From Clostridia bacterium (GTDB taxonomy: Bacteria; Bacillota; Clostridia; TANB77; UBA1234): a stretch of DNA of 64,000 nt. The stretch covers positions 13,656-77,655 of the forward strand of contig JAFUGC010000003.1 in the NCBI GenBank assembly GCA_017469565.1. The letters are read 5' to 3'. This document shows positions 3,746 to 34,878 of the stretch, piece by piece. The notes beneath the pieces are model-generated. The model saw nothing but the letters and a program-made list of their open reading frames with translations. It ran no database searches and was not told the origin of the DNA. Within the stretch, counting starts at the first letter, position 1. Each line of letters starts with the position of its first letter. Position numbers and translations under genes: made by a program.

Positions 3746-5830
3746 GTGATTATGGGTAACGATTTAAACAGAATTGGTATTTATATTTCTAAGCTAGCCC
3801 CGAATGACACATATAAGGCTGCTTTAGAAAAAGAGTATCATTTTTATCGGGAAGTTTTAGAGGCTTTTCCGGCAGATTCTGCTCTGCCGGAAGAGCTTAT
3901 TTCGAGCATTTATTCTTTGCTTCAAAGAATCAAAAACTATGTGGTTTTTGGTAACACCAGTAATCCTTTAGTGCCTATCGTTCCCTATATGACAGAGCTG
4001 ATTGACTGTGAAAATGACAAAGAAAAAATCATTGCAAAAGCCAAGACAAATCCTTCCTTTATTGCTAATAGAAGGCAGAAACTTGCTATTTTCAAACAGC
4101 TTTTAGATGCCATTGACTATGGCGGAGAAAGAAAGGATATTCGGGGAACCATCGATCTTGCCACTACAGAATATGAAAAGAGTAATATTTACGCAAGTGA
4201 TTTTGAGCAAGAAATTGCCAAGGCAAAGTATTTTTATATGATAAGACTAATCATGGATGATGCGATAGACGATGCCAATATACTTGCACAAGATTTTGAG
4301 ACAGATATGCTTCTTTTTATGCATCTTAGGCATAAGGATAGTGTTTCACATCTTTTAAAAGAAAGCAAAGCGATGCTGGCAAATGAAATGTATCATTTTT
4401 TAAATGAGTTCCAGGATGGTAAGATTCATGATATTGAATTTTGGAAGATTCTCGCACAAATTGAAAATCCGGAATGGATGCTAAAAGAAGAGAGAAAAGA
4501 AGAAAAGAATCAAGAAGAATTGGAAAATGAAACTTCCTTGGAAGAATTGATAATGGACAAAGAGCCTGCAACAAGCAAGCACAGTTTATTTGAAGTCATT
4601 TCAAGAAAACGGATAGAAAGAAAATTCTATACGGTAGTTTCAGAAGAACACGAATATATCCATATTACTTTGAAACATTTTCAGGGATTTATCATGCCTA
4701 AAGCGGAAATAAAAAAGCTTAATCATTTTTTAAGGAAGCTGGGAGGCTCTCATGGAGAGCATTATAAAACAATAACAATTCAAACCTTTGCTTACAATAA
4801 AGTTCATAGCTATGATTTACGGGATACTCTTTCGATTCGTCATGTGATTGAGTGTATTAGCTATTATCTGCCATCTTCACAATTGGTTCTTGATTTTTCT
4901 TACTGTCATACAACTCACATTCCTCAAGAATTTTTTGAAAATCTAAGCATTACAAAAGTGGTGTTACCATACGATTTGCAGGTGATAGAAGATTTTGCTT
5001 TTCATGGTTGCAAAGAATTAGAAGAAGTTATCTTTCCTGAAAAGTTGCTTGAGATTCGCACGGGAGCATTTCTCGGGTGTTTCAAATTAAAACAAGCAGA
5101 CTTAAGTAAAACATCACTGAAAAAGAATGGCTTGAAAAATAGATGCTTTGAAAGTTGCACTGACCTTGAAAAAGTTCTTTTTAATGATGAATTACAAGTA
5201 ATTGGTGAGGAGGCATTTAGATGTTGTGAGTCACTAAGGCAGATTTCATTGAAAAATGTTTCCATTATTGAGCCATATGCATTTTTGTATTGTTACCACT
5301 TAGGAAAAGTAGAAGAAACGCAAAACTTAACAATGATAGGGACAAGTGCTTTTAAAGAATGTAAAAATCTTAAGCATTTTAATTTTCCAACCTATTATGA
5401 TGAAACAGAACTTATCATTGAAGAAGAAGCCTTTGCTTTAAGCGGACTTAAAAAAATGTATATGGATTGCATCCACTTAAGTATAGGGGAAGGCATTTTC
5501 AAAAACACTAATTTGAAGAAAGCTGAGATTCATAGCACTATCACAAGTCTTCCAGAAAGTACTTTTGAGGGATGTTCCGAATTAGAAGAAGTCATTTTAC
5601 CCGCTAATCTAGAAACGCTAGAAGAGGGCTGTTTTAAGGAATGCATTTCTTTAAAAGTGATAGATCTTCCAAAATCTTTAAAAAGAATTAACCGAGATAG
5701 TTTTAGAGATTGTGAAGAAATTGAAATGATTCATTTTTCAGGACAGCTTGAATATGTTGGAGATAATGCCTTTTGTGGCTGCGATGCTTTAGACCTGAAA
5801 AAACTCAACTTTATGACACCAATAGACTAA
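3746..5830 (+). CDS. Leucine-rich-repeat protein, paralog 2 (same N-terminal domain + LRR_5 repeats)
   Basis: RBS AAAGGAGGGG lies 9 nt upstream. The N-terminus (KAALEKEYHFYREVLE...FEQEIAKAKYFY...FWKILAQIENPEW) aligns with paralog 1 (KAPLEKEYELYRTSLE...FEQEITRAKYFY...FWKVLAQIENPEY). Confidence 0.7.
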   Translation: MIMGNDLNRIGIYISKLAPNDTYKAALEKEYHFYREVLEAFPADSALPEELISSIYSLLQRIKNYVVFGNTSNPLVPIVPYMTELIDCENDKEKIIAKAKTNPSFIANRRQKLAIFKQLLDAIDYGGERKDIRGTIDLATTEYEKSNIYASDFEQEIAKAKYFYMIRLIMDDAIDDANILAQDFETDMLLFMHLRHKDSVSHLLKESKAMLANEMYHFLNEFQDGKIHDIEFWKILAQIENPEWMLKEERKEEKNQEELENETSLEELIMDKEPATSKHSLFEVISRKRIERKFYTVVSEEHEYIHITLKHFQGFIMPKAEIKKLNHFLRKLGGSHGEHYKTITIQTFAYNKVHSYDLRDTLSIRHVIECISYYLPSSQLVLDFSYCHTTHIPQEFFENLSITKVVLPYDLQVIEDFAFHGCKELEEVIFPEKLLEIRTGAFLGCFKLKQADLSKTSLKKNGLKNRCFESCTDLEKVLFNDELQVIGEEAFRCCESLRQISLKNVSIIEPYAFLYCYHLGKVEETQNLTMIGTSAFKECKNLKHFNFPTYYDETELIIEEEAFALSGLKKMYMDCIHLSIGEGIFKNTNLKKAEIHSTITSLPESTFEGCSELEEVILPANLETLEEGCFKECISLKVIDLPKSLKRINRDSFRDCEEIEMIHFSGQLEYVGDNAFCGCDALDLKKLNFMTPID

Positions 5831-5835
5831 ATTAT

Positions 5836-5866
5836 ACTCGCTAGAATTTTCTAGCGAGTTTTTTAT
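5836..5866 (+). terminator. Intrinsic terminator after LRR paralog 2
   Basis: Hairpin actcgctagaa/ttctagcgagt followed by TTTTTT. Confidence 0.6.
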
Positions 5867-6110
5867 TCTGCATTTGGGGATGCAATTGGGGGACACCTTC
5901 CAAAGAGGTGCATTTGGGGATGCAATTGGGGATGCATTTGGGGACACCTTCCAAAAGCATCATATGTCATGCACATTTGGAGATGCATTAGGAAGGTGTC
6001 CCCGAATGCATGACATATGATGCTTTTGGAAGGTGTCCCCAAATGCATCCCCAAATGCATCCCCAAATGCACCTCTTTGGAAAGTGTCCCCAATTGCATC
6101 TTGCCAAACA
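5863..6110. repeat. ~250-bp long-arm palindrome built from GCATTTGGGGA direct repeats and GGGGACACCTTCC / GGAAGGTGTCCCC cores
   Basis: The left arm (~5866-5970) is the near-exact reverse complement of the right arm (~6012-6110). The centre also carries GGAAGGTGTCCCC. The spurious ORFs 5863-6336(-) and 6017-6133(+) are translations of this repeat. Confidence 0.7.
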
Positions 6111-6163
6111 GTGAAAAGTACAGTATACTAGTCATGAAAATTGAAAGAATAGGAGAGGATAAC

Positions 6164-6541
6164 GTGAGTGAATTAAAAGTATATAAGTGTACAATTTGTG
6201 GAACAACGGTAGAAATTTTAAATGGAAATGGTAGTAGCCTTACTTGTTGCGGACAAAATATGGTGGAGCTAAAAGCAAATACAGCAGATGCTGCTGCAGA
6301 AAAACATGTTCCAGTCATTGAAAAAGAGGGAGACAAAATTCTTGTGAAAGTAGGAGAGGTGCCACATCCAATGGACCCTGACCATTACATTGTGTGGATT
6401 GCAATGGTAAGTGATGAAAAGGTGGTTAAGGTAAATTTAAAACCTGGTGATAAACCAGAGGCAACCTTCTGTTATGTTCCAGGAGCTACTGTTTATGCAT
6501 ATTGTAATAAACATAACCTTTGGAAAAAGGATGTAGAATAA
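6164..6541 (+). CDS. dfx: Desulfoferrodoxin (superoxide reductase, 2Fe-SOR)
   Basis: N-terminal desulforedoxin motif YKCTICG...CCG and C-terminal neelaredoxin domain (EKHVP...H..H...C..H). Start is GTG 6164, 5 nt after AGGAGAGG. Confidence 0.8.
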   Translation: MSELKVYKCTICGTTVEILNGNGSSLTCCGQNMVELKANTADAAAEKHVPVIEKEGDKILVKVGEVPHPMDPDHYIVWIAMVSDEKVVKVNLKPGDKPEATFCYVPGATVYAYCNKHNLWKKDVE

Positions 6542-6662
6542 CAAAAATAATAAGCATGCTAAAAATTAGTATGCTTATTATTTTTATGCATATTATCACT
6601 TGATTTTTTGAAAGTTAGATAATATAATGCAATTGTAACAATGACCAGAAAGGAAAGAAGAC

Positions 6663-7127
6663 ATGCCAGAAGAATTTATGAAAGAAGCCTTAAAGGAAGC
6701 CCAAAAAGCTATGAGTAAAGAGGAAGTTCCAATAGGTGCTGTTATAGTAAAAGACGGGAAAATAATTGCAAGAGGACATAATTTACGAGAAACCAAAAAA
6801 GATGCATGTGCTCATGCAGAAATTATTGCAATTCAAAAAGCATGTAAGAAATTAGATGCATGGAGACTAGAAGACTGTGAAATCTATGTAACACTAGAAC
6901 CCTGTTCCATGTGTGCTGGTGCAATCATGAATGCAAGAATAAAAAAACTATATATTGGTGCCATGGAACCTAAGTCTGGAAGTGTGGGATCCAAATTAAA
7001 TTTGTTGGGTGATTATACTTTCAATCATAAAGTAGAGGTGGTTACTGGCATTTGTGAAGAAGAATCTGTAAGGCTACTAAAGGATTTTTTTCAATATTTA
7101 AGGAAAAAGGATAAGGAGAAAAAATAG
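6663..7127 (+). CDS. tadA: tRNA-specific adenosine deaminase
   Basis: CDA-fold motifs HAEIIAI and LEPCSMCAGAI; 154 aa. Confidence 0.85.
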   Translation: MPEEFMKEALKEAQKAMSKEEVPIGAVIVKDGKIIARGHNLRETKKDACAHAEIIAIQKACKKLDAWRLEDCEIYVTLEPCSMCAGAIMNARIKKLYIGAMEPKSGSVGSKLNLLGDYTFNHKVEVVTGICEEESVRLLKDFFQYLRKKDKEKK

Positions 7128-8435: not shown

Positions 8436-9581
8436 GTGGTGAGTGATGTGCGTTATAGCGGAACCTTAATAGATGAAAATCAAAAAATATTAAGTTTAAT
8501 TAGCCATGAATACGTTAAGCTTGACTTTTCAAGCCTTTCATCACTTTCTGTCACAAATTGGAATGAACCTAGTTTCATGGATAATTACGTTTTAATTTAT
8601 AAAGCTAATCTTCCAGCAGATATTACTATTTATAATATTTTGCTAGAAAAATTATCATCAAAAATATTTTTATTCACATATATAAATTCCTCAGATACAT
8701 ATATTGCTAATGCAGACGCATTCATGATTAGAGCTTATGTTAATTACTTAATCACCAAAGAGCCAGTAGAATATTATATAAGAGCACAGTTTTTACCGAA
8801 TAAAGAGTATGCAAAAGAAATACTTAAGGTAAATAAATTTACGGATTGTGGTGTTAATGTTGAACATTTGGGGAAAAATAAGTTCCAAATTACTCCATTG
8901 AACATTACTTTTGAAAATATGGAAGGGGCAAAAAGTGTATATCATGATTTGCTTGATTTGAATGATTTTTGTAAAGATGTAAATATGGATAAAGGTATCA
9001 TTCTTGCAAATTATGAATCTGTTCAAAAACTTAGTAAAGATAAAAGAATGCTTGCTACACTTAGTAATATTAAAACTTATTTTGGCTGTCAATTCAACAT
9101 GAAAAATGGTAATATTATTTTTGATGGAACAGAGTATATGATAAATGATGAAGAATCTGCTACAGCATTTCAAGCAAAAGTGATTGATGCGTATCACTTT
9201 TTTAGAAATGTAATTAACACAAAAGATAAAAAGGATATTATCAGTGAAATCTATAATCAAAAGGTTTCCACTGAAATAAAGAAGGAATTCTTAGGAAATA
9301 TGGCTTCCTATATAAATGCTACCAAAAATCAGGAACTTGTTGATTGGATTGTTACAATCTCGAAAGAAAGCAAATATACATTGCCTATATCTTATGATAC
9401 ACAAGGGATATTCTATATAGATGGTGCTATCATCGTAACTCCTTTAGATGCAAAAGAATATTATATAGATTATATGGATAAGCAAAGAGAGAAGTTAGCA
9501 ATGATTATTTACAAGAATAATATTATTGGTAAAATCAAGAGAATTTGGGATAAATTCAGAGCAAGATTTGCAAGAGCATAA
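8436..9581 (+). CDS. Hypothetical protein (381 aa), very low GC, no recognisable domain
   Basis: Long ORF in an AT-rich islet. GTG start is uncertain. A -10 TATAAT at 8419-8424 is 12 nt upstream of the GTG. Confidence 0.45.
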   Translation: MVSDVRYSGTLIDENQKILSLISHEYVKLDFSSLSSLSVTNWNEPSFMDNYVLIYKANLPADITIYNILLEKLSSKIFLFTYINSSDTYIANADAFMIRAYVNYLITKEPVEYYIRAQFLPNKEYAKEILKVNKFTDCGVNVEHLGKNKFQITPLNITFENMEGAKSVYHDLLDLNDFCKDVNMDKGIILANYESVQKLSKDKRMLATLSNIKTYFGCQFNMKNGNIIFDGTEYMINDEESATAFQAKVIDAYHFFRNVINTKDKKDIISEIYNQKVSTEIKKEFLGNMASYINATKNQELVDWIVTISKESKYTLPISYDTQGIFYIDGAIIVTPLDAKEYYIDYMDKQREKLAMIIYKNNIIGKIKRIWDKFRARFARA

Positions 9582-9586
9582 ATTTT

Positions 9587-9664
9587 GCAAGAGGCGCAAG
9601 AAGAAGCGAACAACCGGGGACAACCTTTTTTGTCCCTGGTTGTTCGCTTCTTGCGCCTCTTGCA
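9587..9664. terminator. Long (~33-bp stem) bidirectional terminator hairpin with a GGGGACAACC...TTGTCCC core, between convergent genes
   Basis: gcaagaggcgcaagaagaagcgaacaaccggggacaacc-tttttt-gtccctggttgttcgcttcttgcgcctcttgc. Confidence 0.65.
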
Positions 9665-9665
9665 T

Positions 9666-9950
9666 TTATTTATTCGCGATGATTACTTCGTTATCATTTG
9701 TTTCTTCAATCTCACTATTTGGGGATTTTTCGTCATTTGTTGAACTGTTTTCTTCTTGCTTTATGCTTCCGCTCGTGGTATATACTTTCCCACCAGTACT
9801 AGTATTCTTGGCAGTTTCAGTATTATTAGCGGCTTCAACAACAGAAAGATTATAATCTCTAAATATATAGTCCATAAAGTTGTTGCCAGCTACAACACCG
9901 GCAGAAAAAGAAAAAACAGTTATAAACAAAAGAATTATTTTCTTAGTCAT
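9666..9950 (-). CDS. Small secreted protein (signal peptide MTKKIILLFITVFSFSAGVVA), Ser/Thr/Asn/Glu-rich
   Basis: 94 aa; N-terminal hydrophobic signal. RBS GGGGGAAAC lies upstream on the minus strand. Confidence 0.5.
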   Translation of the reverse strand: MTKKIILLFITVFSFSAGVVAGNNFMDYIFRDYNLSVVEAANNTETAKNTSTGGKVYTTSGSIKQEENSSTNDEKSPNSEIEETNDNEVIIANK

Positions 9951-10190
9951 AAAAGTTTCCCCCTATAAAGTGATAGAAATAATCACATATTTAATTCGCA
10001 ATCATTATTATAGCACGGCTTATAAACTTATGTCAACAAAATAATATAGATATTTTATGAAAGTAGGAATCTTTAAGTAGGTATTTACACTTTTTCCTCC
10101 GTCCCTAATTTGTCCACCTTGCTATTTACATTTAAAAAATAATGTGCTATAATGACTCTTGTCTTAAGATAGAAAAAAGGTTATAATCAT

Positions 10191-10322
10191 ACCGTAAAGT
10201 GTGTTTATATGAATGGTGGTCAAGGAAAGACTATGAACCTTGTCAGGTCCGGAAGGAAGCAGCAATAAGTAGATCCTTTTTTGTGATACACCATTCATAT
10301 AAGCGTATTTTACGGTATTTTT
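10191..10322 (+). ncRNA. ffs: Signal recognition particle RNA (small 4.5S-type SRP RNA)
   Basis: Conserved domain IV sequence GGUGGUCAAGG...GUCAGGUCCGGAAGGAAGCAGC. A long terminal helix pairs ccgtaaag...tatatgaatggtg with caccattcatata...tttacgg. It is followed by a U-run. Promoter TTGTCT-17-TATAAT sits at 10160-10188. The position immediately upstream of dnaX is conserved. Confidence 0.75.
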
Positions 10323-10343
10323 TATTAAGGGTGGGGGAATGGT

Positions 10344-11762
10344 ATGTCTTATGTAGCTTTATATAGGCAGTTTAGGCCTAAGGTTTTTGAAGATGTTGTG
10401 GGGCAAGAACATATTACTAAAACTTTAAAAAATCAAATAAAAAGTGGCAGGGTGGCGCATGCTTATCTTTTTAGTGGAGGCAGAGGTAGTGGAAAAACTA
10501 GTACGGCTAAGATATTGTCAAGAGCAGTAAACTGCTTAAATCCAAAAGATGGTGAGCCTTGTAATGAATGTGAAATATGCAGACAAGCCTTAGAAGGAAC
10601 TTTAACAGATATCAGTGAAATTGATGCGGCATCGAATAATGGCGTTGATAATATTAGAGACATTCGAGAAGAAGTTGAATTTATTCCTACAAATGCTAGA
10701 TACAGGGTTTATATTATTGATGAGGTTCACATGCTTTCTACAGGTGCATTTAATGCTCTACTAAAAACATTAGAAGAACCACCTAAACATGTGATATTTA
10801 TTTTGGCTACCACGGAACCTCAAAAACTTCCTATCACCATACTTTCAAGATGTCAGAGGTTTGATTTTAAGAGGATTTCGGTAGAGAATATTATTAAAAG
10901 GTTAAATATCATTTGTAATGAATCGCATATCAAAATTGAAGAAGGTGCTCTTAAGATTATTGCAAAAATGTCTGACGGTGCAATGAGAGATGCCATTAGC
11001 ATATTAGAAAGATGTGTGGCAGATGGAGAAGATATCATCACAGAAGAAAAAGTAAGGGAACTTGTTGGAATTCCGGAATTAGAGTATTTATTAGAAATAT
11101 CAAAGAATCTGATGTTAAATGATGCTGCTCAGGTATTGGAAAGTGCAGAAAAAATCATTAATGAGGGAAAAGATTTAGAAATATTCACTTGGGAGCTTAT
11201 TAAGTTTATGAGAGATCTCATTATGCTTCAGATTTCAGATAATTTAGTACTTTATAAAGAGGATGAAAAAGTGAGAATGAGAGAACTGCTTAAGTTCACC
11301 GATAAGGAAAGATTGTTACGTTTGATTACGGATTTGTCATCCCTTCAGAGCAGCATGAAATGGGCATCGGACAGGGAAGTGATATTTGAAACAGGGCTGA
11401 TTAAGATTGCTTATGAGGGCAATCGTAATCAAATGCTTTCTCATGTAGGTATTTCTCAAAATGTGTCGGCCAAGGCAAATGGAAATGCCTCAGTTCCTCA
11501 GGAAAGTAATACATCAGATAATGAACTAAAAGAGAAAGTTCTATCAATATTAAAAGAAAATCGAAAAATGATTATGCACACAATTTTGACAGGGGCAGAA
11601 ATAAAAGTTGCGAGTGAAGACCTTGTGCACATTATTTTTGGAGCATCGATTGATGATGTTAACAAACAATATATGCAAAAAGAAGAGAGTAAAGCAGTAA
11701 TCAAAGAAACAGTAAAAAATGCTCTTCATAAGGAAATGAAAATTAAATATGTATTTGGATAA
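10344..11762 (+). CDS. dnaX: DNA polymerase III subunit gamma/tau
   Basis: AAA+ clamp-loader motifs (GGRGSGKTS Walker A, zinc module CNECEICR, SRC motif LSRCQRF). Confidence 0.9.
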   Translation: MSYVALYRQFRPKVFEDVVGQEHITKTLKNQIKSGRVAHAYLFSGGRGSGKTSTAKILSRAVNCLNPKDGEPCNECEICRQALEGTLTDISEIDAASNNGVDNIRDIREEVEFIPTNARYRVYIIDEVHMLSTGAFNALLKTLEEPPKHVIFILATTEPQKLPITILSRCQRFDFKRISVENIIKRLNIICNESHIKIEEGALKIIAKMSDGAMRDAISILERCVADGEDIITEEKVRELVGIPELEYLLEISKNLMLNDAAQVLESAEKIINEGKDLEIFTWELIKFMRDLIMLQISDNLVLYKEDEKVRMRELLKFTDKERLLRLITDLSSLQSSMKWASDREVIFETGLIKIAYEGNRNQMLSHVGISQNVSAKANGNASVPQESNTSDNELKEKVLSILKENRKMIMHTILTGAEIKVASEDLVHIIFGASIDDVNKQYMQKEESKAVIKETVKNALHKEMKIKYVFG

Positions 11763-11885
11763 TCCAAGTAAAAAGTTTATGGTTAAGAAATTTTGAATTA
11801 ATTTGAATTAAATAGTTGTATCATGAATTTATATGTTATAATAAAGTGCATGTTGTAAATCAAAAATGAGAAAGGAAGATGAATC

Positions 11886-12236
11886 ATGGCAAAGTTTAAT
11901 GGATTCCCAGGAATGGGTGGAGGCGCCGGTAATATGGCAAACTTATTAAAACAAGCACAAAAAATGCAATCAGATATGATGAAAACGCATACAGAAATAG
12001 AGGAAAGAGAGTTTGAAGTTGCTACTGGCGGTGGCGCTGTGACAATCATCATGACTGGTAAAAAGACGATTAAATCAATCAAAATCAAACCAGAAGTTAT
12101 TGATAAAGATGATCCGGAAATGTTGGAAGATTTAGTGATGACAGCAGTGAATGAAGGCATAAAAAAAGCAGATGATATGATGGAAGAAGAAATGAAAAAA
12201 TATAATATTCCTAGTGGATTAAATGGACTATTGTAG
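11886..12236 (+). CDS. ybaB: Nucleoid-associated protein YbaB/EbfC
   Basis: 116 aa with N-terminus GMGGGAGNMANLLKQAQKMQ characteristic of YbaB. Conserved position between dnaX and recR. Confidence 0.85.
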   Translation: MAKFNGFPGMGGGAGNMANLLKQAQKMQSDMMKTHTEIEEREFEVATGGGAVTIIMTGKKTIKSIKIKPEVIDKDDPEMLEDLVMTAVNEGIKKADDMMEEEMKKYNIPSGLNGLL

Positions 12237-27349: not shown

Positions 27350-27958
27350 GTGATCACCGAAAAGAATAAAGAAAATATCATAAAAGGATTAGAGGCTGAG
27401 CTTGAAAATGGCACATTTTATCAAGTGAATCAGTGGGATGTGCTTGCAAACACTGACACGGATTTTTATCATGATGTTTTTGATTTATCTACATCAAAAA
27501 GTTATGCTACCCCTGAGTTTAAGGGTGTTGGGCTGTTTAGACCGCTTGTAAGTAATGAGTTTAATCCTTTAAATAGCACGGTTTATAATTATAAGGCAAG
27601 CTATGAGGCACCGGTACATGGAATGGCGTTTACTGGTAAGAATGGAGAGTATGTGGAGTCACATTATCTTTCCGGATTGAATTTAGGAGCAAGCATCACC
27701 AATGAGTTTGGTACAGTTACAGTGGAAGCGCCGGTTACTCATATAGATATGAAAATTAATAATATGGGTACGGATGATAATGTTCAAGTAAATATGGCTG
27801 ATATTCTACCAAATACCCAAACTGCTAATGTGATAGATTTTGCATCGGTTCCACAAGAACTTGCACTTGCCAAAAGAAATCATTGGAAAGATATTCTATT
27901 TATGGATGTGGATATTATAGGCAGTGTAAAGAAACTTTGGAAAAATATTTCTGTATAG
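27350..27958 (+). CDS. Hypothetical protein (202 aa)
   Basis: GTG start after AGAGGGGG; no recognisable domain. Confidence 0.45.
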   Translation: MITEKNKENIIKGLEAELENGTFYQVNQWDVLANTDTDFYHDVFDLSTSKSYATPEFKGVGLFRPLVSNEFNPLNSTVYNYKASYEAPVHGMAFTGKNGEYVESHYLSGLNLGASITNEFGTVTVEAPVTHIDMKINNMGTDDNVQVNMADILPNTQTANVIDFASVPQELALAKRNHWKDILFMDVDIIGSVKKLWKNISV

Positions 27959-27983: not shown

Positions 27984-28018
27984 AAGTGTGTAAGTGATTT
28001 TACTTACACACTTTTTTT
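27984..28018 (+). terminator. Intrinsic terminator upstream of the PK-like/PurA-like operon
   Basis: aagtgtgtaagt-gatttt-acttacacactt followed by TTTTTTT. Confidence 0.6.
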
Positions 28019-28168: not shown

Positions 28169-29093
28169 TTTGAAACGGGATTGTAGACTTATTGCAACGC
28201 TACCTTCATTGAGTAATTTGAAAAAGGTGCAAGAGGTTTTTGAGAGTGATTGTGTAGATGAAGTAAGGTTTAATACGGGAGTGCATGTGCCTTTTGCGGC
28301 GGAAGAAGCGCTGGATATTTTACAAAGGTTGTCACTGAAGTATGATAAGAAACTTTGGATTGATGTGAAGGGCAGGCAGCTTAGGATTAGCAAGTGGGCG
28401 GATCCTTTGTATTCTTGCATTGAACTCAATCACCATGTGGAGGTTTTATATCCGGCAGAGGTTTGTTTTAGAAATGGTGATCGGGTGAGAATTGCCCATA
28501 TCAAAGATGGAAATAAACTTTTTGTGGAACCGCTGCCCAAAGAGGCGCTTGGTGCAGGGCAGTCTGTGAATATTATTGGGAGAGATGTTGAGATTGATGG
28601 TTACTTAACGGAGAAAGATAAAGAGTACTTAACTGCTTGCGCTAAGCTGGGTATGCCTTGGATTATGGCTTCTTTTGTAGAAGAGTTCTTGGATTTCATG
28701 GAGATTTTGACGCTCCAACCGAATGCTCAAATTATGGCTAAAATTGAGTCACTCAAGGGAATGGAGCTTGTGACAAGGCATCCATCTGTACTTATGGAGA
28801 AGTTTAACATTTTTTCTCTAATGGCTGCGAGAGATGACCTGTATATTCAGACAGGTGAAAATTGCAGCATGTTAAAGCATTTGAAAGCAATTGTTGATGT
28901 GGACAGTGGGGCAGTTTGTGCATCCCGGATTTTCCCTTCTTTGGAGAGAAGGCAAACGCCTGAGTTTGCAGATTATGCGGACTTGGAACTCATGTATAGC
29001 ATGGGCTATCGGAGGTTCATGCTGTGTGATAACATATGCAATTACCATTTTGAAAAAGCAATCAAAGCATGGAAGGAGTTTCAGCATGGATAG
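28169..29093 (+). CDS. Pyruvate-kinase-like TIM-barrel protein (A-domain only; B-lid and C-terminal domains absent)
   Basis: TTG start is 7 nt after AAGGAGG. Motifs RLIATLPS, VRFNTGVH, LWIDVKGRQLRIS, IMASFVE, AKIESLKG, MAARDDLY align with pyruvate kinase KIVCTIGP, RLNFSHG, LLDTKGPEIRT, MVSFVR, AKIENQEG, MVARGDLG. ~308 aa instead of ~470+. Confidence 0.6.
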
Positions 29094-30549
29094 TTATGTA
29101 TTATGTGGAATGCAGTTCGGTGATGAAGGAAAAGGTACGTTTGTTGACTATATGTCACATAGAGAAGACGCGGATGCCGTTGTCCGGTATAACGGAGGTT
29201 CACAGGCATCGCATACGGTGGTGACTCCAAGTGGAACGCTTCATAAGTTTAGTCAGTTAGGTTCCGGAATGTTTTTGGAAAATTGTCACACATATATTAC
29301 GGAAAACACTGTGGTGAACCTGGATAATCTTATGGTGGAGTTGAAGGTTTTTTCGGAAAAAACTGGTATTTCTGTTTCTGAACTCATCAATCGGATTCAC
29401 ATTCATGAGAATTGTTTTGTGGTAACGCCTTATCACAAGCTGCTGAACAAGCTAAGAGAATTGTCATTGGGAGAAAACCGCAGAGGAACGGTTGGCACTG
29501 GTGTGAGTGAGGTCCGGTATGTGTTGGAAGAGTCTCAAAATTTTCCGCTTGAGCCATCCTTAGGGGTTCAAGTAAAAGATATTTTTGATTCTCGTGGTAT
29601 TCGTCCACTCCTTGCTGGTTTCATGGGGCTTCATGAGTATGTGAGTGCGTTCTATCAGGAAAATCAGGAAGTGATTTGGAAAAATACTCCTGAGGAGATG
29701 AAAGAGGGTTTACAGAAAGAGATAGATTCTTTGCTTTCTGGACAAGTTTTTAATCTTACTAACATTTATAGAAGATACTTTAATACGGTACCACGAGAGT
29801 TTAACCTGAAAAGATGTATTTATAGTACTTATGAACAGTCTTTGCACGCAAACTGTAAGAAGGTGATTTTTGAGGGGTCACAGGGACTTTTGATTGATGG
29901 TAAATATGGCATCAAGCCGAATACCACTTTTCTGGATACCACCAATCAGTTTGCTTTGAGGATAAGTAGGTACACGGACCATGTGACAAAGGTTGGTATC
30001 GTGAAGGCTTTTAGCTCTCGGCATGGACCAGGTATATTTCCCACGGAATCAGAGGAAGTGAGCAGTAAGATTCAAGACCCAAATCAGGAGGAATCTTTCT
30101 GGAATGGTAAGATTCGTTTTGGGTGGCTGGATGTGGTGCTGCTCCGGTATGCACAGCACATCAACCAGGTGGATGAGCTTTATTTGTCTTCCTTGGACCT
30201 GCTGGATGATTTTGAGGAACTCAAAATTTGTGTTGGTTATATATACGATGGCAAGGTAGATGAAGAATTCAATCGGACTTTCGAATATGTTGATATGTTG
30301 GACGGTAGGAAGTATATTGATGATATTGTGATGCCCAGTGACAGGCTGGGAGAGTACTTGAAACTTTGCGTTCCGGATTACATGTGCATCAGAGGCTGGA
30401 AGAAGGATATTTCTCAGGTGACTGATCAGGAGGAACTGCCAGTTCGGTGTAGAAATTACATTGGCTGGCTGGGACGTCTTATGAATCTTCCTGTTACGGT
30501 GGTGTCTGTGGGACCTACTCGGGAAAACAAGATACGAATGGATTCTTAG
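29086..30549 (+). CDS. Adenylosuccinate synthetase (PurA) family paralog, divergent
   Basis: ATG 29086 overlaps the upstream stop by 8 nt. GDEGKGT P-loop, VVRYNGGSQASHTV, RRGTVGTGVSE and FEGSQGLLIDGKYG correspond to PurA GDEGKGK, GGxNAGHT, GTTxRGIGPAY and EGAQGxxLDIDxGTYP. 487 aa. Confidence 0.7.
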   Translation: MDSYVLCGMQFGDEGKGTFVDYMSHREDADAVVRYNGGSQASHTVVTPSGTLHKFSQLGSGMFLENCHTYITENTVVNLDNLMVELKVFSEKTGISVSELINRIHIHENCFVVTPYHKLLNKLRELSLGENRRGTVGTGVSEVRYVLEESQNFPLEPSLGVQVKDIFDSRGIRPLLAGFMGLHEYVSAFYQENQEVIWKNTPEEMKEGLQKEIDSLLSGQVFNLTNIYRRYFNTVPREFNLKRCIYSTYEQSLHANCKKVIFEGSQGLLIDGKYGIKPNTTFLDTTNQFALRISRYTDHVTKVGIVKAFSSRHGPGIFPTESEEVSSKIQDPNQEESFWNGKIRFGWLDVVLLRYAQHINQVDELYLSSLDLLDDFEELKICVGYIYDGKVDEEFNRTFEYVDMLDGRKYIDDIVMPSDRLGEYLKLCVPDYMCIRGWKKDISQVTDQEELPVRCRNYIGWLGRLMNLPVTVVSVGPTRENKIRMDS

Positions 30550-30572
30550 AGAGAAGAAGAGGAGGATTATGC

Positions 30573-31175
30573 ATGAAAGATAAGCTTTATGAAGAGATTG
30601 ACCGGCGTATTACCACTGGTCAAAAGGTGAATGTGCTGATTGCTGGGATGACCTGTTCCGGAAAGAGCACTCTTGCCAGAGAAATTCAGGAGCATTATGT
30701 GTTTGGAAAGCATCCTAAACAGGTGTCTATTATTTCTCAGGATTGTTACTTTAAAAATTTAGGATTGATTCCTAGAAATAAAGGCGGCTATTTGATGGAT
30801 TCTCTTTATGCCTTTCATGCAGATGAGTACCGGGCTCATGCACAGTATCTGACTCAACATGGAACGGTGAGAGTGCCTCAGTATGACATTGCCAGAAATA
30901 AAAGGACGGCGGAATACACTAAAATTGAAAATGGAGATATTAATATCTTTGAGGGTTTGCATAGCATCCGGATATTAAGTGGACTGTGGCATAATGTAAA
31001 AGTCTATTTGGATACTGATGTAGAAACCTGCCTGGAAAGAAGGATTGCAAGGGATACGTCTTTATATGACGTGCCGGAGGAGCGCATTCGTGAGTACTGG
31101 GCGGAGTGTATTATGCCCTTAAGTAGAGAGTTCATTTTCCCGCAAAAGGAAATGGCGGATTGGATTATCAGCTAA
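30573..31175 (+). CDS. P-loop kinase of the uridine kinase/phosphoribulokinase family
   Basis: Walker A VLIAGMTCSGKST and an ISQDCYFK motif as in uridine kinase; 200 aa. Confidence 0.6.
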   Translation: MKDKLYEEIDRRITTGQKVNVLIAGMTCSGKSTLAREIQEHYVFGKHPKQVSIISQDCYFKNLGLIPRNKGGYLMDSLYAFHADEYRAHAQYLTQHGTVRVPQYDIARNKRTAEYTKIENGDINIFEGLHSIRILSGLWHNVKVYLDTDVETCLERRIARDTSLYDVPEERIREYWAECIMPLSREFIFPQKEMADWIIS

Positions 31176-31189
31176 AGGGGGAAATGCTT

Positions 31190-32236
31190 ATGACGGTTAA
31201 GGAAATTTATGAAAGGCTGCTGAGGGCCAAACGGCCGGTGGATTTTTTTGGTGAGGCTACCACGGAAGAGGAGCTGAAAAGGTTCTATAAGGATTTTGCC
31301 AAAAAGGTTCATCCGGATTTAGTGCCTGACTGTGACAGGTATCTTGCCGGTGAGGCGTTTTCTGTGCTGAATAGACTTTATCATTTGGGTCTTGCTGAGT
31401 TCCAACAGGGCATTTATGGCGTAATTGACCAGGTGCAACTGTATTCGCATCAGTCGCCGCTGTTTGAAATCACGGCTGGAGGAAAGCGGTATCAGTTTTT
31501 TGAGAATGTGTTTGAAGGCGAGGTTGCCTATCTTTTTAAGGGGAAGTCGGCCGATGATGATATTGTGTATCTGAAAGTAGCGATTGACCCAGCAGACAAT
31601 GAACTGATTGACACGGAGTATGATGTGCTTTCCACGCTTAGGCATCAGTCTTTTCCATATGTGGAACAGAAAATTCAGGTGAATGATACCAGGGCCATTT
31701 TGATGCGAGAGGTGAAGGGCATTACTATGCTGGAGCTTTTGGAGCAATATCCGCATGGTGTGCCTGCAGAGCATGTGATGTGGATGCTGGAGCGCCTGCT
31801 GAGTGCTGTGGGGTATCTGCATGCTAACTTTGTGGTGCATGGGAATATCAAGCCGGAAAATATCATCATTAACAAGGAAAATCATAATGTTTCCTTGGTT
31901 GGTTTTTCTTTCTGTATTCCTAAGGCGAATACCCCAGAGGCAAAGTACAAGATTCAAAATGATAATTATTCTGCTCCTGAGGTAAGTGCGGATGCCACGG
32001 TTTATCCGGCATCGGATGTATATTCGGTTGGCAAAATTGCGATTGCGCTTTTAGGAGGTGCCGTTTCTTCTTCTGGAATGCCCATTTCCGTGAATGCGAA
32101 AGTGAGGGCGTTTATCCGGAAAATGGTGAATCCTTCTATGATGGATAGACCAGACGATGCCTGGAAACTCTGGACGGAGCTGATTGAGCTCAGAACGGAA
32201 GTTTTTGGAACTCAGCGGTTTCAAAAATTGGACTGA
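31190..32236 (+). CDS. J-domain (HPD) fused to a Hanks-type protein-kinase-like domain predicted to be catalytically inactive (pseudokinase)
   Basis: N-terminal ELKRFYKDFAKKVHPDL (HPD tripeptide present). Kinase-like YLKVAI (VAIK Lys), HGNIKPENIII (HRD Asp replaced by Asn), VGFSF (DFG Asp lost), SAPEV (APE). RBS GGGGGAA. Confidence 0.6.
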   Translation: MTVKEIYERLLRAKRPVDFFGEATTEEELKRFYKDFAKKVHPDLVPDCDRYLAGEAFSVLNRLYHLGLAEFQQGIYGVIDQVQLYSHQSPLFEITAGGKRYQFFENVFEGEVAYLFKGKSADDDIVYLKVAIDPADNELIDTEYDVLSTLRHQSFPYVEQKIQVNDTRAILMREVKGITMLELLEQYPHGVPAEHVMWMLERLLSAVGYLHANFVVHGNIKPENIIINKENHNVSLVGFSFCIPKANTPEAKYKIQNDNYSAPEVSADATVYPASDVYSVGKIAIALLGGAVSSSGMPISVNAKVRAFIRKMVNPSMMDRPDDAWKLWTELIELRTEVFGTQRFQKLD

Positions 32237-32292
32237 GAGTGTGTTGGTTGAACATGACGCATGAAACAAATTAGTATAAGGAGGAAATCACA

Positions 32293-33243
32293 ATGGGTGG
32301 AAGCAGCTATGACCGGGATGTGTACAGTGGTAGCTCTAGTTCAGGCTGGGGTGCTAGTTCTTATTCAGCAATGAAGATGGGCAGTAGCACTTTGGATAGC
32401 TCCCTGAGGGCTAATGGTAAGATTCTGAAAAGTACAAGCAAGAATCCTATTATTGTGGTGCTGGATGTGACTGGCTCCAACATTGATTTTGCCAGATTGG
32501 TTTATGACAAGATGCCGATGTTTTATGGGCAGATTGAGCAGAAGGGGTATTTGGATGACTTTGATATTGCTTTTTGTGCGGTGGGTGATGCCTACACGGA
32601 TGATTATCCTTTGCAGATAGGTGATTTTGCAAAGGGGATTGCTTTGGACTCCCAACTGGAAAAGTTAGTGCTGGAGGGTGCTGGCGGAGGCCAGAGGAAG
32701 GAGTCTTACGAGCTTGCCGCTTATTATCTGTATAAGAATGCGGAGTTTCCACCGGGCAGTAAGCCTCTCATCTTCTTTATTGGAGATGAGGCACCTTATC
32801 CTAAGGTGAATGAGGTTCAGGCTCAGGAGTTTGGCATTGACTGCACTGAAGGTAATGTGGAGCCTTTTGAGCTTTTGCGGAAGAAGGTAAATGACAATGT
32901 CTTTATGCTCTTGAACAAGTATTGCAGTAGGAGTTTTGAAAGTGACATTACAGAGGCGTGGACCACGCGGTTGGCGCCAGAACATGTGATTAAGATTCAG
33001 GAGGAAAAGGCGATTGTGGACCTGATGCTGGGCATTATCTCCATGGTTTCGAATGCGAGAACGCTAGAGACTTATAAGGTGGATATGCTGGATAGAGGGC
33101 AGACACAGGAGCGGATTGCCGGTGTTTCGGAATCGCTTCAGAATTTTTCAAAGGTCACATCGATTGTGCCTGTGAAGGTGTCTGGGATAATTCCCAAGGC
33201 TTCCGGTGGGAAGCAAAGCACTCAGAAGGGCAAACGCCTGTAA
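32293..33243 (+). CDS. von Willebrand factor A (vWA) domain protein with a Gly/Ser-rich N-terminal low-complexity region
   Basis: IIVVLDVTGSN (MIDAS-like D-x-T-x-S), downstream FFIGDEAPY; RBS AGGAGGAAAT. Confidence 0.65.
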   Translation: MGGSSYDRDVYSGSSSSGWGASSYSAMKMGSSTLDSSLRANGKILKSTSKNPIIVVLDVTGSNIDFARLVYDKMPMFYGQIEQKGYLDDFDIAFCAVGDAYTDDYPLQIGDFAKGIALDSQLEKLVLEGAGGGQRKESYELAAYYLYKNAEFPPGSKPLIFFIGDEAPYPKVNEVQAQEFGIDCTEGNVEPFELLRKKVNDNVFMLLNKYCSRSFESDITEAWTTRLAPEHVIKIQEEKAIVDLMLGIISMVSNARTLETYKVDMLDRGQTQERIAGVSESLQNFSKVTSIVPVKVSGIIPKASGGKQSTQKGKRL

Positions 33244-33253
33244 GATGAATTTT

Positions 33254-33288
33254 GGTGGTACACTTATTTTAGTGTACCACCTTTTTTG
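33254..33288 (+). terminator. Intrinsic terminator after the vWA gene
   Basis: ggtggtacact-tatttt-agtgtaccacc followed by TTTTTT. Confidence 0.6.
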
Positions 33289-33329
33289 GCACTTTTTGTT
33301 GTTTTTTGATGCTTTTTCTATTTATGTGC

Positions 33330-33358
33330 TTGACATAATGATGGGCAAAATATATAAT
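33330..33358 (+). promoter_or_regulatory. Consensus sigma-A promoter TTGACA-17-TATAAT for the downstream acidic protein
   Basis: Perfect hexamers with 17-nt spacer, ~50 nt upstream of the RBS. Confidence 0.55.
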
Positions 33359-33410
33359 AACAAGGCTAAATATGTTACTTTAGGACCAACCATTATTAAG
33401 GAGGTAAAAT

Positions 33411-34832
33411 ATGGGTATTCGAAACTGGTTAAACCGCAGGCGTGAGATGGAAGACGGACTGGATGATGCGGCTGTTACTAGTTCAACTGGTTCAACCACT
33501 TCAACCGCTTCAACCGTGAATGACACTTCTTGTCATGTGAAGGTTCCCGAGAAGGTGGAGAATCTTCCGCAGATAGAGCGTGAGGCACTTTACCGGTGGA
33601 GCAAAGTGTTTTTGGGAGAAGTGGCGAGTGCAGATTATACCAAGCGGTTTGTGAAGTCCCTGAATATCAGCCCGTATCATATGGGAGATACTTATTGGAA
33701 TGTTAAACAGGAAGAAATGGAAAGGATTGGCTGTCTGACGGAGTGCTACCGGGCGTGCATCAGCAGAGTCTTTGCAGAGAATAATTTTCTGGCCGGCCCT
33801 GAGATGCTGGAAGAACTCATACGGGTTGTCACGGCAAATCTGGTAAGTCGCATGCTTCAGGAAACAGATATCACTTATGATTATGATCTGTCTGAGTATG
33901 AGAAAGAGATTTTTCAGTTTGGTTCAGAGCTTTTGAAGGCGGTTTATTGGGTGGCCACCGAGAATGTGGTGGATTTTGTTAGTCTTTACGAGAAAATCAA
34001 TCACGGTATTGATTTCAGGCTGAAAAGCATGTATGGGCCGGAGATTACATACCGGTATACTTACCTTATTCCGGCGGAGTATCTGTTTGAACTTCCTGAT
34101 TTTGTTTATGAAAAGAGATTGGGCAGTATTCAAGACAGGATGGAGGCTGTTCATGATGTGGAAGCCATCATTAGTGGAGTTCTTTCTCGGGATAATGATA
34201 TTGGTGATGGCGCAGTATACCTTTCCAAGCTTAAGGAATTCATGATAAAAGAAAAGGAGTTTCTGACACTGGATTTTGAGCATATTCTGTTCCAGTATTT
34301 TGAAGAGTTTAAAGAGGAGAACGAATTAACGTCCTATAACTTTTATGCTTATGGGATACATGACCTGATTGCTGCTATTCCGCAATATTTCCCGGAAATG
34401 ATTGTGGAGTCTTTTGAGTATCAGCTGGCAATGATGCAGCGTGTTTATGTATGCCAAGATGAAGTGGAGATGTTTGAAGAGGATCTGGTGGATCTGTATG
34501 AACGCATCGTCATTTATCGGAATTATAGAGCGGAAGATTTTCAGGTAACTGATTCTGATTCCTGGAAAGCAACTATTAGTAGTTTTTTTGAACTGGGGCT
34601 TTCGGGGTATGCACTGACCAGAATTTCGGATTTGCTCACGGATGGTTTAGGCGTGAGCAGAGATGAAGTGGAAGCGTACATTGAGAGTCTGACCCGGGAT
34701 TATTTGGATGATTGCTACTGGATTGGTACGGATGAGGAGAGCCTCATTCATATGATTCGGCTGCTGTCTAATCCTGTTGTTTACCGTGTGATTGAAGAAG
34801 AGAAGCCGGCCATCATTGACTGCTTCTGGTAA
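33411..34832 (+). CDS. Hypothetical acidic protein (473 aa) with a Ser/Thr-rich N-terminal tract (VTSSTGSTTSTASTVNDTS)
   Basis: RBS AAGGAGG lies 7 nt upstream; no recognisable domain. Confidence 0.5.
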   Translation: MGIRNWLNRRREMEDGLDDAAVTSSTGSTTSTASTVNDTSCHVKVPEKVENLPQIEREALYRWSKVFLGEVASADYTKRFVKSLNISPYHMGDTYWNVKQEEMERIGCLTECYRACISRVFAENNFLAGPEMLEELIRVVTANLVSRMLQETDITYDYDLSEYEKEIFQFGSELLKAVYWVATENVVDFVSLYEKINHGIDFRLKSMYGPEITYRYTYLIPAEYLFELPDFVYEKRLGSIQDRMEAVHDVEAIISGVLSRDNDIGDGAVYLSKLKEFMIKEKEFLTLDFEHILFQYFEEFKEENELTSYNFYAYGIHDLIAAIPQYFPEMIVESFEYQLAMMQRVYVCQDEVEMFEEDLVDLYERIVIYRNYRAEDFQVTDSDSWKATISSFFELGLSGYALTRISDLLTDGLGVSRDEVEAYIESLTRDYLDDCYWIGTDEESLIHMIRLLSNPVVYRVIEEEKPAIIDCFW

Positions 34833-34840
34833 GAATTTTG

Positions 34841-34878
34841 TGGTGGAGGAAAACTTGTTTCCTCCGCCATTTTTTTGT
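34841..34878 (+). terminator. Intrinsic terminator closing the accessory cluster
   Basis: tggtggagga-aaacttgtt-tcctccgcca followed by TTTTTTT. Confidence 0.6.

Follow-up and report, generated by a model that had tools for sequence, protein, structure and literature searches.

The 64,000-nucleotide stretch analysed here, hereafter the window (positions 13,656 to 77,655 of the forward strand of contig JAFUGC010000003.1, assembly GCA_017469565.1, from a Clostridia bacterium), carries a horizontally acquired cassette of five co-directional genes, which encode in order a minimal pyruvate-kinase-like (PK-like) protein, a remodelled PurA-like ligase, a Udk-like kinase, a J-domain pseudokinase and a vWA protein. 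This cassette is one instance of a large, phage-centred module, and its vWA member belongs to no Pfam, NCBIfam or PADLOC family. It represents the Firmicutes form, with a Udk-like addition, of a module found more widely in phages, bacteria and archaea. The core of this conserved and mobile module consists of a J-domain kinase or pseudokinase, a vWA protein with conserved tails, and a PurA-like and/or a PK-like enzyme. Our overall reading, to which we give about an even chance (roughly 0.5), is that of an acquired Firmicutes-form cassette built around a GTP-driven C-N ligase that would have adopted a new amine and would act in a virus-host conflict.

The open reading frame (ORF) scan of the window finds six co-directional ORFs in a row, spanning 28170-34832; genes 1 and 2 overlap by 8 nt, and the following gaps are of 23, 14 (counting gene 4 from position 31190) and 56 nt. 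On the left, an intrinsic-terminator-like hairpin at 27984-28013 (+ strand, a 13-bp stem followed by a T run) ends the unit made of the clpC operon and a 202-aa gene, and coincides with the left border, at about 28.0 kb, of a compositional island. Across 28.0-35.0 kb, gene 6 included, the GC content is 0.40-0.46 with a negative AT skew, versus 0.34-0.38 and a positive AT skew in the flanks; the island is placed between the ctsR-mcsAB-clpC operon and the ylxM-ffh-rpsP cluster of this metagenome-assembled genome (MAG). A first-pass annotation, made from the sequence alone, had described a six-gene operon with this overlap and these gaps, outer terminators and a perfect internal promoter, and our ORF, hairpin and promoter scans agree with each of these elements; genes 1 to 5 do form one operon. 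What had been overlooked is a further, strong intrinsic-terminator-like hairpin at 33254-33281 (+ strand, an 11-bp stem with 6 GC pairs and a T run), which closes the five-gene operon ahead of the promoter TTGACA-17-TATAAT at 33330-33358 (+ strand, 12 of 12 positions matching) that serves gene 6. Because this terminator and this promoter intervene, the unit is a five-gene operon plus a separate sixth gene.

Genes 1 to 5 are accessory rather than housekeeping, in line with the earlier view that none of them is the cell's ordinary pyk, purA or udk: the segment is a compositional island, and the three enzymes fall far under the curated NCBIfam equivalog cut-offs. Gene 1 scores 40.8 bits against the pyruvate kinase equivalog TIGR01064 (cut-off 306.4), gene 2 scores 234.8 bits against NF002223 (cut-off 402) and 213.4 against TIGR00184 (cut-off 395.6) for PurA, and gene 3 scores 99.1 bits against NF004018 (cut-off 180) and 89.8 against TIGR00235 (cut-off 220) for Udk. 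No further PK, PurA or Udk homolog is present elsewhere in the 64 kb. The broad family assignments that had been proposed from motifs are nonetheless upheld, with Pfam profile matches to the PK barrel for gene 1 (E 2e-10), to Adenylsucc_synt for gene 2 (E 8e-80), to PRK/Udk for gene 3 (E 4e-17, the PRK family being passed with 63 bits versus 22) and to Pkinase for gene 4 (E 6e-20).

Homologs of the five genes travel together well beyond this organism. We found at least 460 homologs of gene 1 and at least 613 close homologs of gene 5, with 1596 clusters at 50% identity for the latter. Cellular loci were gathered from the contigs of three distant gene 1 homologs and from a scan of 185,579 species genomes with a vWA alignment, giving 41 informative loci. 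The order 1-2-3-4-5 is constant in all loci from Clostridia, Bacilli, Tenericutes and Muribaculaceae (Bacteroidota), that is, in about 30 genomes, and the flanks are unrelated; the neighbourhood search that the first-pass annotation had proposed thus finds genes 1 to 5 co-travelling in the same order in dozens of genomes. In Methanosarcinales and in one Verrucomicrobia MAG, profile mapping gives the order 4-5-1-2 (kinase-vWA-PK-PurA), gene 3 being missing, and partial gene sets occur in one Bdellovibrionales and one Uhrbacteria locus. The flanks of 35 cellular loci consist of varied housekeeping genes, with no defence-island signal.

Lytic and jumbo phages are where the module is commonest; in cells its distribution is patchy. 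A scan of IMG/VR with the same vWA alignment returned 149 matches, from which 80 loci were kept, many of them on contigs of 100-480 kb. In about 70 of the 80 viral loci a PurA-like gene comes after the vWA gene, and in 38 a kinase-fold gene comes before it; nine loci carry a kinase-vWA-PK-like set without a PurA-like gene, and one viral contig of 139 kb (L048) shows the archaeal arrangement 4-5-1-2, with no Udk-like gene. Among cultured phages, tblastn finds the vWA homolog in 201 Mycobacterium, 6 Vibrio and 6 Rhizobium phage records; the Mycobacterium phages matched include I3, Cali, Spud and Rizal, I3 being classed in Bixzunavirus. Two of these cultured phage records were inspected in detail. 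Phage I3 has, in order, a kinase (gene 270), a hypothetical protein that is the vWA homolog (271), a small ORF (272) and a “2-aminooxy adenylosuccinate synthetase” (273), and Vibrio phage phiKT1024 has the vWA gene, a small ORF and an “adenylosuccinate synthase”, set among nucleotide-metabolism genes such as the anaerobic ribonucleotide reductase. The small ORF between the vWA and PurA-like genes lies at 6900-7238 in L128 (I3 gene 272, phrog_3263) and at 6971-7153 in L129. In PHROGs, gene 2 falls in family 1211, gene 4 in family 3043 (“kinase”, a full-length match) and gene 5 in family 2971 (function not assigned).

Across phages, the invariant core is the vWA gene plus the PurA-like gene, usually together with the J-domain (pseudo)kinase gene, and the PK-like and Udk-like genes are optional. 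The initial division of the genes into a metabolic half (the three enzymes) and a sensing half is therefore at odds with the broader survey, as the invariant phage core takes one member from each. The suggestion that no system of this composition had been described fared better: none was found in the searchable full-text literature, where our searches met with no functional study of the module and with a single trace of it, a remark of 2009 on an adenylosuccinate synthase homolog, gp250, in the Bxz1 subgroup (PMC2771037).

One additional gene recurs next to the phage module. A protein of about 205 aa, without a PHROG match, is encoded just upstream of the vWA gene in 26 viral loci (L098-L127; for example, L115 9318-9935), most of which are apparently loci where no kinase-fold gene was detected.

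Gene 2 (29086-30549, + strand, 487 aa) encodes a PurA-like, predicted GTP-dependent C-N ligase. PurA is an enzyme of the P-loop GTPase fold; in the E. coli protein, D13 and H41 drive the formation of 6-phosphoryl-IMP, and T300, T301, R303 and R305 hold L-aspartate. We built a residue table in which 100 vWA-linked PurA-like proteins, gene 2 among them, were aligned with E. coli PurA, and cross-checked it on alignments of PurA proteins from the PDB. The P-loop (GDEGKG in gene 2), D13, H41 and Q224 are retained in gene 2 and in nearly all of the 99 other homologs. The substitutions in gene 2 are, in E. coli numbering, N38 to Q, T129 to V and V273 to H, with the aspartate loop TTGRRRR turned into WNGK-IR. 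These are family traits: all or nearly all of the 100 proteins have N38 changed to Q, V273 to H and T129 to C or V, as well as T300-T301 replaced by (W/Y/F)(Q/N) and an Arg303-305 loop that is shorter by one residue. Since D13 and H41 are kept and the aspartate-binding residues are changed, the phosphoryl-activation chemistry of the vWA-linked PurA-like proteins looks intact and their amine site looks rebuilt; because the aspartate-binding loop is rebuilt across the family, canonical adenylosuccinate synthesis by these proteins is unlikely.

A second known function had to be considered for gene 2, that of the phage enzyme PurZ. PurZ, too, is a phage-carried PurA paralog, and PHROGs puts gene 2 in a family bearing a PurZ-type name; PurA and PurZ both share with the gene 2 family the fold, the P-loop GDEGKG, the D13 base, the H41 acid and Q224. 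However, gene 2 reaches 51 bits against the PurZ model NF038379, whose cut-off is 300, and its viral and archaeal homologs reach 31-54; of seven viral, archaeal and bacterial PurA-like representatives, none is up to the PurA or PurZ cut-off. The PurZ, or Z-genome, cluster is defined with the partners DatZ and MazZ (bioRxiv 10.1101/2025.10.22.683976), and the Pfam scan found no DatZ-like or MazZ-like domain among the cassette genes. On the scores, a PurZ or Z-genome function was rejected for gene 2. Apart from lying under both cut-offs, the family differs from PurA and PurZ in the rebuilt aspartate loop, in the changes at N38 and V273, and in being paired with a vWA protein, a pairing for which the searchable literature offered no PurA or PurZ counterpart.

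In one cellular locus (L009), the module is followed, 1 kb further downstream, by another and divergent copy of itself at 8754-12083. This second copy encodes a 346-aa protein without a Pfam match, a vWA protein (9838-10785) starting with MGGSSISH, and a 407-aa PurA-like protein (10860-12083) with the signature residues. Taking this last Adenylsucc_synt gene for a housekeeping purA was rejected: the residue table assigns it to the vWA-linked family, and it has a vWA neighbour of its own, which leaves no housekeeping copy among the genes seen.

Gene 5 (32293-33243, + strand, 316 aa) had been called a vWA protein, and the fold is confirmed by modelling rather than by Pfam. Indeed, gene 5 matches no Pfam model, VWA models included, and no NCBIfam family, no PADLOC model at E <= 0.1, and a sequence-only search of the PDB with the vWA profile found nothing; its AlphaFold model (predicted local distance difference test score, pLDDT, 84) retrieves integrin I-like and vWA domains in a Foldseek search of the PDB, with E about 1e-6 and a probability of 1.0. 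The metal site of the family reads D-x-T-G-S, with D58 and S62 invariant and T60, D165 and E166 nearly so; in gene 5 the corresponding metal-ion-dependent adhesion site (MIDAS)-like motif, D58-V-T-G-S62, is encoded at 32464-32478 (+ strand). In the model, both ends of the protein (residues 1-19 and 292-316) come out as disordered, and both carry conserved motifs. The N-terminal tail MGGSSYDRDVY (32293-32325), which precedes a Ser-rich linker, follows the pattern MGGxSYDRDVY of the cellular proteins, and the vWA proteins encoded beside a PurA-like gene begin more generally with M-G-[GSC]-x-x-[YW]. The extreme C-terminus, KGKRL in gene 5 (33226-33240, + strand), reads G-[KR]-R-[LI] in the cellular proteins and in many of the viral ones, and a further viral clade has I-[TS]-W instead; placed after a disordered linker, it looks like a docking motif. 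The start MGG..Y[DE]R[DE] is also kept in distant homologs in which the vWA protein is fused C-terminally to a U-box (P0257, P0272), a NUDIX domain (P0262, an MMETSP transcript), a RanBP Zn finger (P0278) or an EF-hand (P0388), and at least one distant homolog comes from a marine eukaryote transcriptome.

Two cellular loci depart from the single-vWA layout. In the Methanosarcinales locus L039 (9740-11977), two tandem vWA genes, whose products both start with MGGGSYSRDV, lie between the pseudokinase and PK-like genes, and in the Bdellovibrionales locus L043 (5479-9786), the pseudokinase gene is separated from the vWA gene of the module by genes for a MoxR-like AAA_5 ATPase of 627 aa and a VWA protein of 802 aa.

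Gene 4 (31184 or 31190 to 32236, + strand, 350 aa) joins a J domain to a pseudokinase, as the first-pass annotation had proposed. J domains recruit Hsp70/DnaK. The HPD tripeptide is present at residues 43-45 (31310-31318), although the Pfam DnaJ match is sub-threshold (21 versus a gathering score of 27.8), and the kinase fold occupies about 31502-32122. Its HRD motif has become HGN and its DFG motif GFS, with the VAIK Lys and the alpha-C Glu retained; the Pfam scan and motif inspection reveal no C-terminal extension beyond the kinase fold. On the basis of four homologs, the HPD had seemed poorly conserved, a view overturned by the full sets: an HPD-bearing J domain stands ahead of the kinase fold in 29 of the 39 cellular homologs and in 34 of the 38 viral ones, and some have a full canonical J domain. 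The J domain is thus a core feature of the module. Phage J-domain proteins are known, such as Rki of phage RB43, whose type of J domain engages the host DnaK (PMC3486835) and likewise has the HPD on a phage-borne domain. Here, however, a single protein joins the J domain to a kinase or pseudokinase fold, the gene belongs to a fixed vWA/ligase set, and the module occurs in cellular genomes too; Rki-like proteins offer a precedent for DnaK hijacking, not for the J-kinase fusion architecture.

The enzyme present, the start of the vWA protein and the state of the kinase vary together. Beside a PurA-like gene, the vWA protein begins with MG... in 97 of 105 cases, the remainder looking like start-call artefacts, and the catalytic Asp of the HRD motif is missing in 63 of 64 kinases (HGN, HGA, HGS or HCA), with DFG changed to GFS or D[WFY]x. 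Where the PK-like gene stands alone, which is the case in nine viral loci, the vWA protein starts with MSES[AG]DY in all nine and the kinase keeps its catalytic Asp in all nine (HGD[IL]KPQN, with DFG or DYG). The pseudokinases retain the VAIK Lys and the alpha-C Glu, and the PK-like-only kinases have a Gly-rich loop in addition. This three-way correlation is striking, yet the nine loci may be one clade and thus reflect one evolutionary event.

Gene 1 (28170-29093, + strand, 307 aa) most likely starts with the TTG codon at 28170, behind a AAAGGAGG ribosome-binding site. Its AlphaFold model (pLDDT 92) returns only pyruvate kinases among the top 50 Foldseek matches in the PDB (best E about 5e-17, template modelling score about 0.7), and has, inserted between strands of the barrel, eight beta strands at residues 71-142; in keeping with this, alignment with yeast PK pairs the sequence with the end of the yeast B domain. 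The protein consists of the A barrel and a short B domain, and stops after the barrel, without a C domain. The original description as a PK homolog reduced to its A-domain barrel was thus right about the fold and wrong in calling it “B-domain-less”: it is the C domain that is absent. Gene 1 shares with pyruvate kinase the A-domain TIM barrel, the B-domain lid and the catalytic, cation-binding and phosphate-binding motifs, RxN, DxKGRQLR, K-I-E and AR(D/G)DL (ARDDL in gene 1 itself) all being kept in gene 1 and its homologs, with Ser in place of Thr328; in rabbit numbering, we take the catalytic positions to be R73/N75, D113, K270, E272, D296 and T328. It differs in its length of about 300 aa, in lacking the C-terminal (allosteric/tetramer) domain, and in a B-domain region that counts 72-80 residues in the PK-like proteins versus 96 in PykF (about 25% shorter). 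Its genomic setting is also particular: the PK-like gene lies directly 5' of the PurA-like gene, or replaces it beside the kinase-vWA pair.

Gene 3 (30573-31175, + strand, 200 aa) encodes a nucleoside-kinase-like P-loop protein of the uridine-kinase/PRK family, and is restricted to the Firmicutes/Bacteroidota form of the cassette. A further link to nucleosides is seen in the archaeal locus L041, where a PfkB-family kinase is encoded upstream on the same strand (5819-6745) and a CDA-fold (cytidine/dCMP-deaminase) protein at 11223-11687, also on the same strand, overlaps the end of the PurA-like gene; the PfkB gene suggests that the nucleoside-kinase function recurs through a non-homologous enzyme, and the two genes together hint that nucleosides are supplied here by enzymes unrelated to the Udk-like one. 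In four loci of Bacilli/Tenericutes type, an NrtR-like regulator (NUDIX plus NrtR winged-helix) is encoded directly 5' of the cassette and on its strand (L030 5362-6039, L031 4973-5644, L032 5380-6051 and L033 5358-6035). The NrtR family senses ADP-ribose, which suggests that the cassette is under the control of ADP-ribose or of a related nucleotide in these four loci. In a Clostridia genome from sheep omasum (L025), a second Udk/PRK-like gene (11106-11729) lies directly 3' of the vWA gene, in addition to the copy within the cassette.

From these residues and gene sets, the following mechanism can be proposed. At the expense of GTP, the PurA-like enzyme would still phosphorylate a purine nucleotide on its 6-oxo group, and would then join the activated carbon to some non-aspartate amine; the product would be an adenine nucleotide substituted at N6. 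The minimal pyruvate kinase would regenerate nucleoside triphosphate (NTP) from phosphoenolpyruvate (PEP), and the Udk-like kinase (PfkB in the one archaeal locus) would supply the nucleoside monophosphate (NMP). The J-domain pseudokinase and the vWA protein would form a scaffold joining DnaK and the ligase, the J domain recruiting DnaK. As the module is commonest in phages and patchy in cells, its role most likely lies in virus-host conflict and not in ordinary purine metabolism. On this reading, new enzymology is predicted, with a minimal pyruvate kinase and a PurA-type ligase that takes a new amine, and so is a new way for Hsp70 to be coupled, within virus-host conflict, to an enzyme that handles nucleotides. 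Hundreds of sequenced phages carry the module, among which are the well-studied cluster C mycobacteriophages (Bxz1/I3 group) and many uncultured jumbo phages; the mycobacteriophages growing on M. smegmatis offer a cultured and genetically tractable entry to it.

Several points weigh against this proposal. A conflict role could mean phage offence, host defence or metabolic support, the catalytic steps are predicted from residues, and phage carriage could equally mean an auxiliary metabolic function. There is no obvious toxic effector in the cassette, and the context of the 35 cellular loci gives no support to a defence role. Because nine viral loci have the PK-like gene with the kinase-vWA pair and no PurA-like gene, the role of the PK-like protein need not be tied to the ligase. 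The nucleotide substrate may be a purine or a pyrimidine, ribo or deoxy. One also has to keep in mind that the IMG/VR contigs may contain some misclassified cellular DNA.

As for the amine, a more specific idea, to which we give a low probability, is that the vWA protein is itself the substrate of the ligase: after removal of Met, the amine of its N-terminal Gly would attack the GTP-activated C6 of a 6-oxopurine nucleotide, and the product would be a protein with an N6-linked adenine nucleotide at its N-terminus. The dead kinase would then keep only an ancestral tail-docking job, its J domain bringing Hsp70. We counted in favour of this idea the family-wide rebuilding of the aspartate site, the three-way correlation described above and the survival of the N-terminal motif in eukaryote-like homologs; the caveat on the nine contrasting loci, which may be a single clade, applies here too, and we know of no such modification of a protein N-terminus.

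The vWA protein beside a kinase-fold protein had led to a comparison with the TerY-P triads, which combine a TerY-like vWA protein, a PP2C phosphatase and a Ser/Thr kinase in a validated defence module (PMC11090510); TerY also figures in a stand-alone defence system, Gao_TerY. In an explanation along these lines, the cassette would be an anti-phage or stress system in which the three enzymes make a free nucleoside- or nucleotide-like messenger or toxin, for instance a modified NTP obtained by way of nucleoside, NMP, base-modified NMP and NTP, and in which the J-domain pseudokinase and the vWA protein sense infection and control the enzymes. The pairing of vWA and kinase folds is indeed the hallmark of TerY-P, and both are found in mobile, patchy operons linked to conflict or stress (PMC11090510); a nucleoside kinase, a base-modifying ligase and an NDP-to-NTP kinase would make a coherent route to a modified NTP, and the patchy taxonomic spread, the variable flanks and the NrtR-like regulators upstream in four loci fit as well. 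The likeness to TerY-P nevertheless stops at resemblance. No phosphatase domain is found by Pfam in the cassette, nor do the 25 commonest Pfam families around the 35 cellular loci include one; gene 4 lacks the catalytic Asp and, where the TerY-P kinase has a Zn-ribbon or OB fold at its C-terminus, carries a J domain at its N-terminus; gene 5, with its own hallmark MGG..Y.DRD, matches no PADLOC TerY model, the comparison being made through models; and the module is tied to PurA-like and PK-like enzymes. Membership in TerY-P was rejected on the PADLOC result. Nor did PADLOC-DB 2.0 point to another system: gene 4 has generic kinase-domain matches only (MkoA, PD-T4-6, mad6, PglW), gene 3 has marginal P-loop matches, and genes 1, 2 and 5 have nothing significant. 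With no effector domain, no defence-island context, Udk-like and PK-like genes that are dispensable in most phage versions, and a distribution far denser in lytic and jumbo phages than in cells, which fits phage offence or metabolism at least as well, a messenger-making defence system seems to us doubtful. Another pairing worth comparing is that of vWA proteins with MoxR or Mg-chelatase ATPases, where a MIDAS vWA also stands beside a partner of P-loop NTPase fold, and the Bdellovibrionales locus even adds, beside the module, a MoxR-like AAA protein and another vWA protein; however, the partner in our module is a PurA-type ligase with intact ligase residues rather than an AAA+ ATPase, and no metal-insertion client is evident.

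A metabolic explanation is distinctly unlikely in our view. The module would salvage adenine nucleotides and ATP, turning inosine or another nucleoside into NMP (Udk-like or PfkB kinase), IMP into AMP or adenylosuccinate (PurA-like enzyme, perhaps with ammonia or another simple amine) and NDP into NTP from PEP, under the regulation of the vWA protein and the J-domain pseudokinase; phages would thereby sustain or restore purine pools, and in some anaerobes it would serve as an accessory operon for salvage. The three enzymes, with their catalytic residues kept, fit one linear route, the phiKT1024 copy sits amid nucleotide-metabolism genes such as the anaerobic ribonucleotide reductase, the cellular flanks are housekeeping genes, metabolic regulators of NrtR type precede four loci, and the phage NAD+ reconstitution pathways give a precedent (bioRxiv 10.1101/2024.02.11.579819). 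Salvage sits badly, however, with an aspartate-binding loop rebuilt in every member and with the many phage versions, most of them, that have neither the nucleoside kinase nor the PK-like enzyme, and it leaves unexplained the strict vWA pairing, the conserved tails of the vWA protein and the J-domain pseudokinase. A last reading is that ordinary pyk, purA and udk paralogs form a redundant operon beside two neighbours unrelated to them, without any function in common, as the Pfam matches to housekeeping families and the position between housekeeping operons might suggest; this we regard as scarcely tenable, as it is contradicted by the scores far under the equivalog cut-offs, the family-specific remodelling of the active site and the co-linearity of five genes in dozens of genomes across phyla, with module genes linked in viruses as well, not to mention the compositional island. 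A C-N ligase module engaged in virus-host conflict thus remains our preferred reading.

Gene 6 (33411-34832, + strand) encodes an acidic protein of 473 aa with a Ser/Thr-rich N-terminus, and forms with its own promoter and terminators a separate unit (33330-34870), ended 3' by a terminator-like hairpin at 34840-34870 (+ strand). It has zero matches in Pfam, NCBIfam, PADLOC and PHROGs; its homologs are confined to contigs of the window's own organism, and it accompanies the cassette in no other genome. Hence, although it lies inside the same compositional island, gene 6 is outside the conserved system, of which the first-pass annotation had made it a member. On the other side of the cassette, between clpC and gene 1, the 202-aa ORF at 27350-27958 has no family match in any library; its homologs are found only in the window's organism, and its GC content is that of the flanks.

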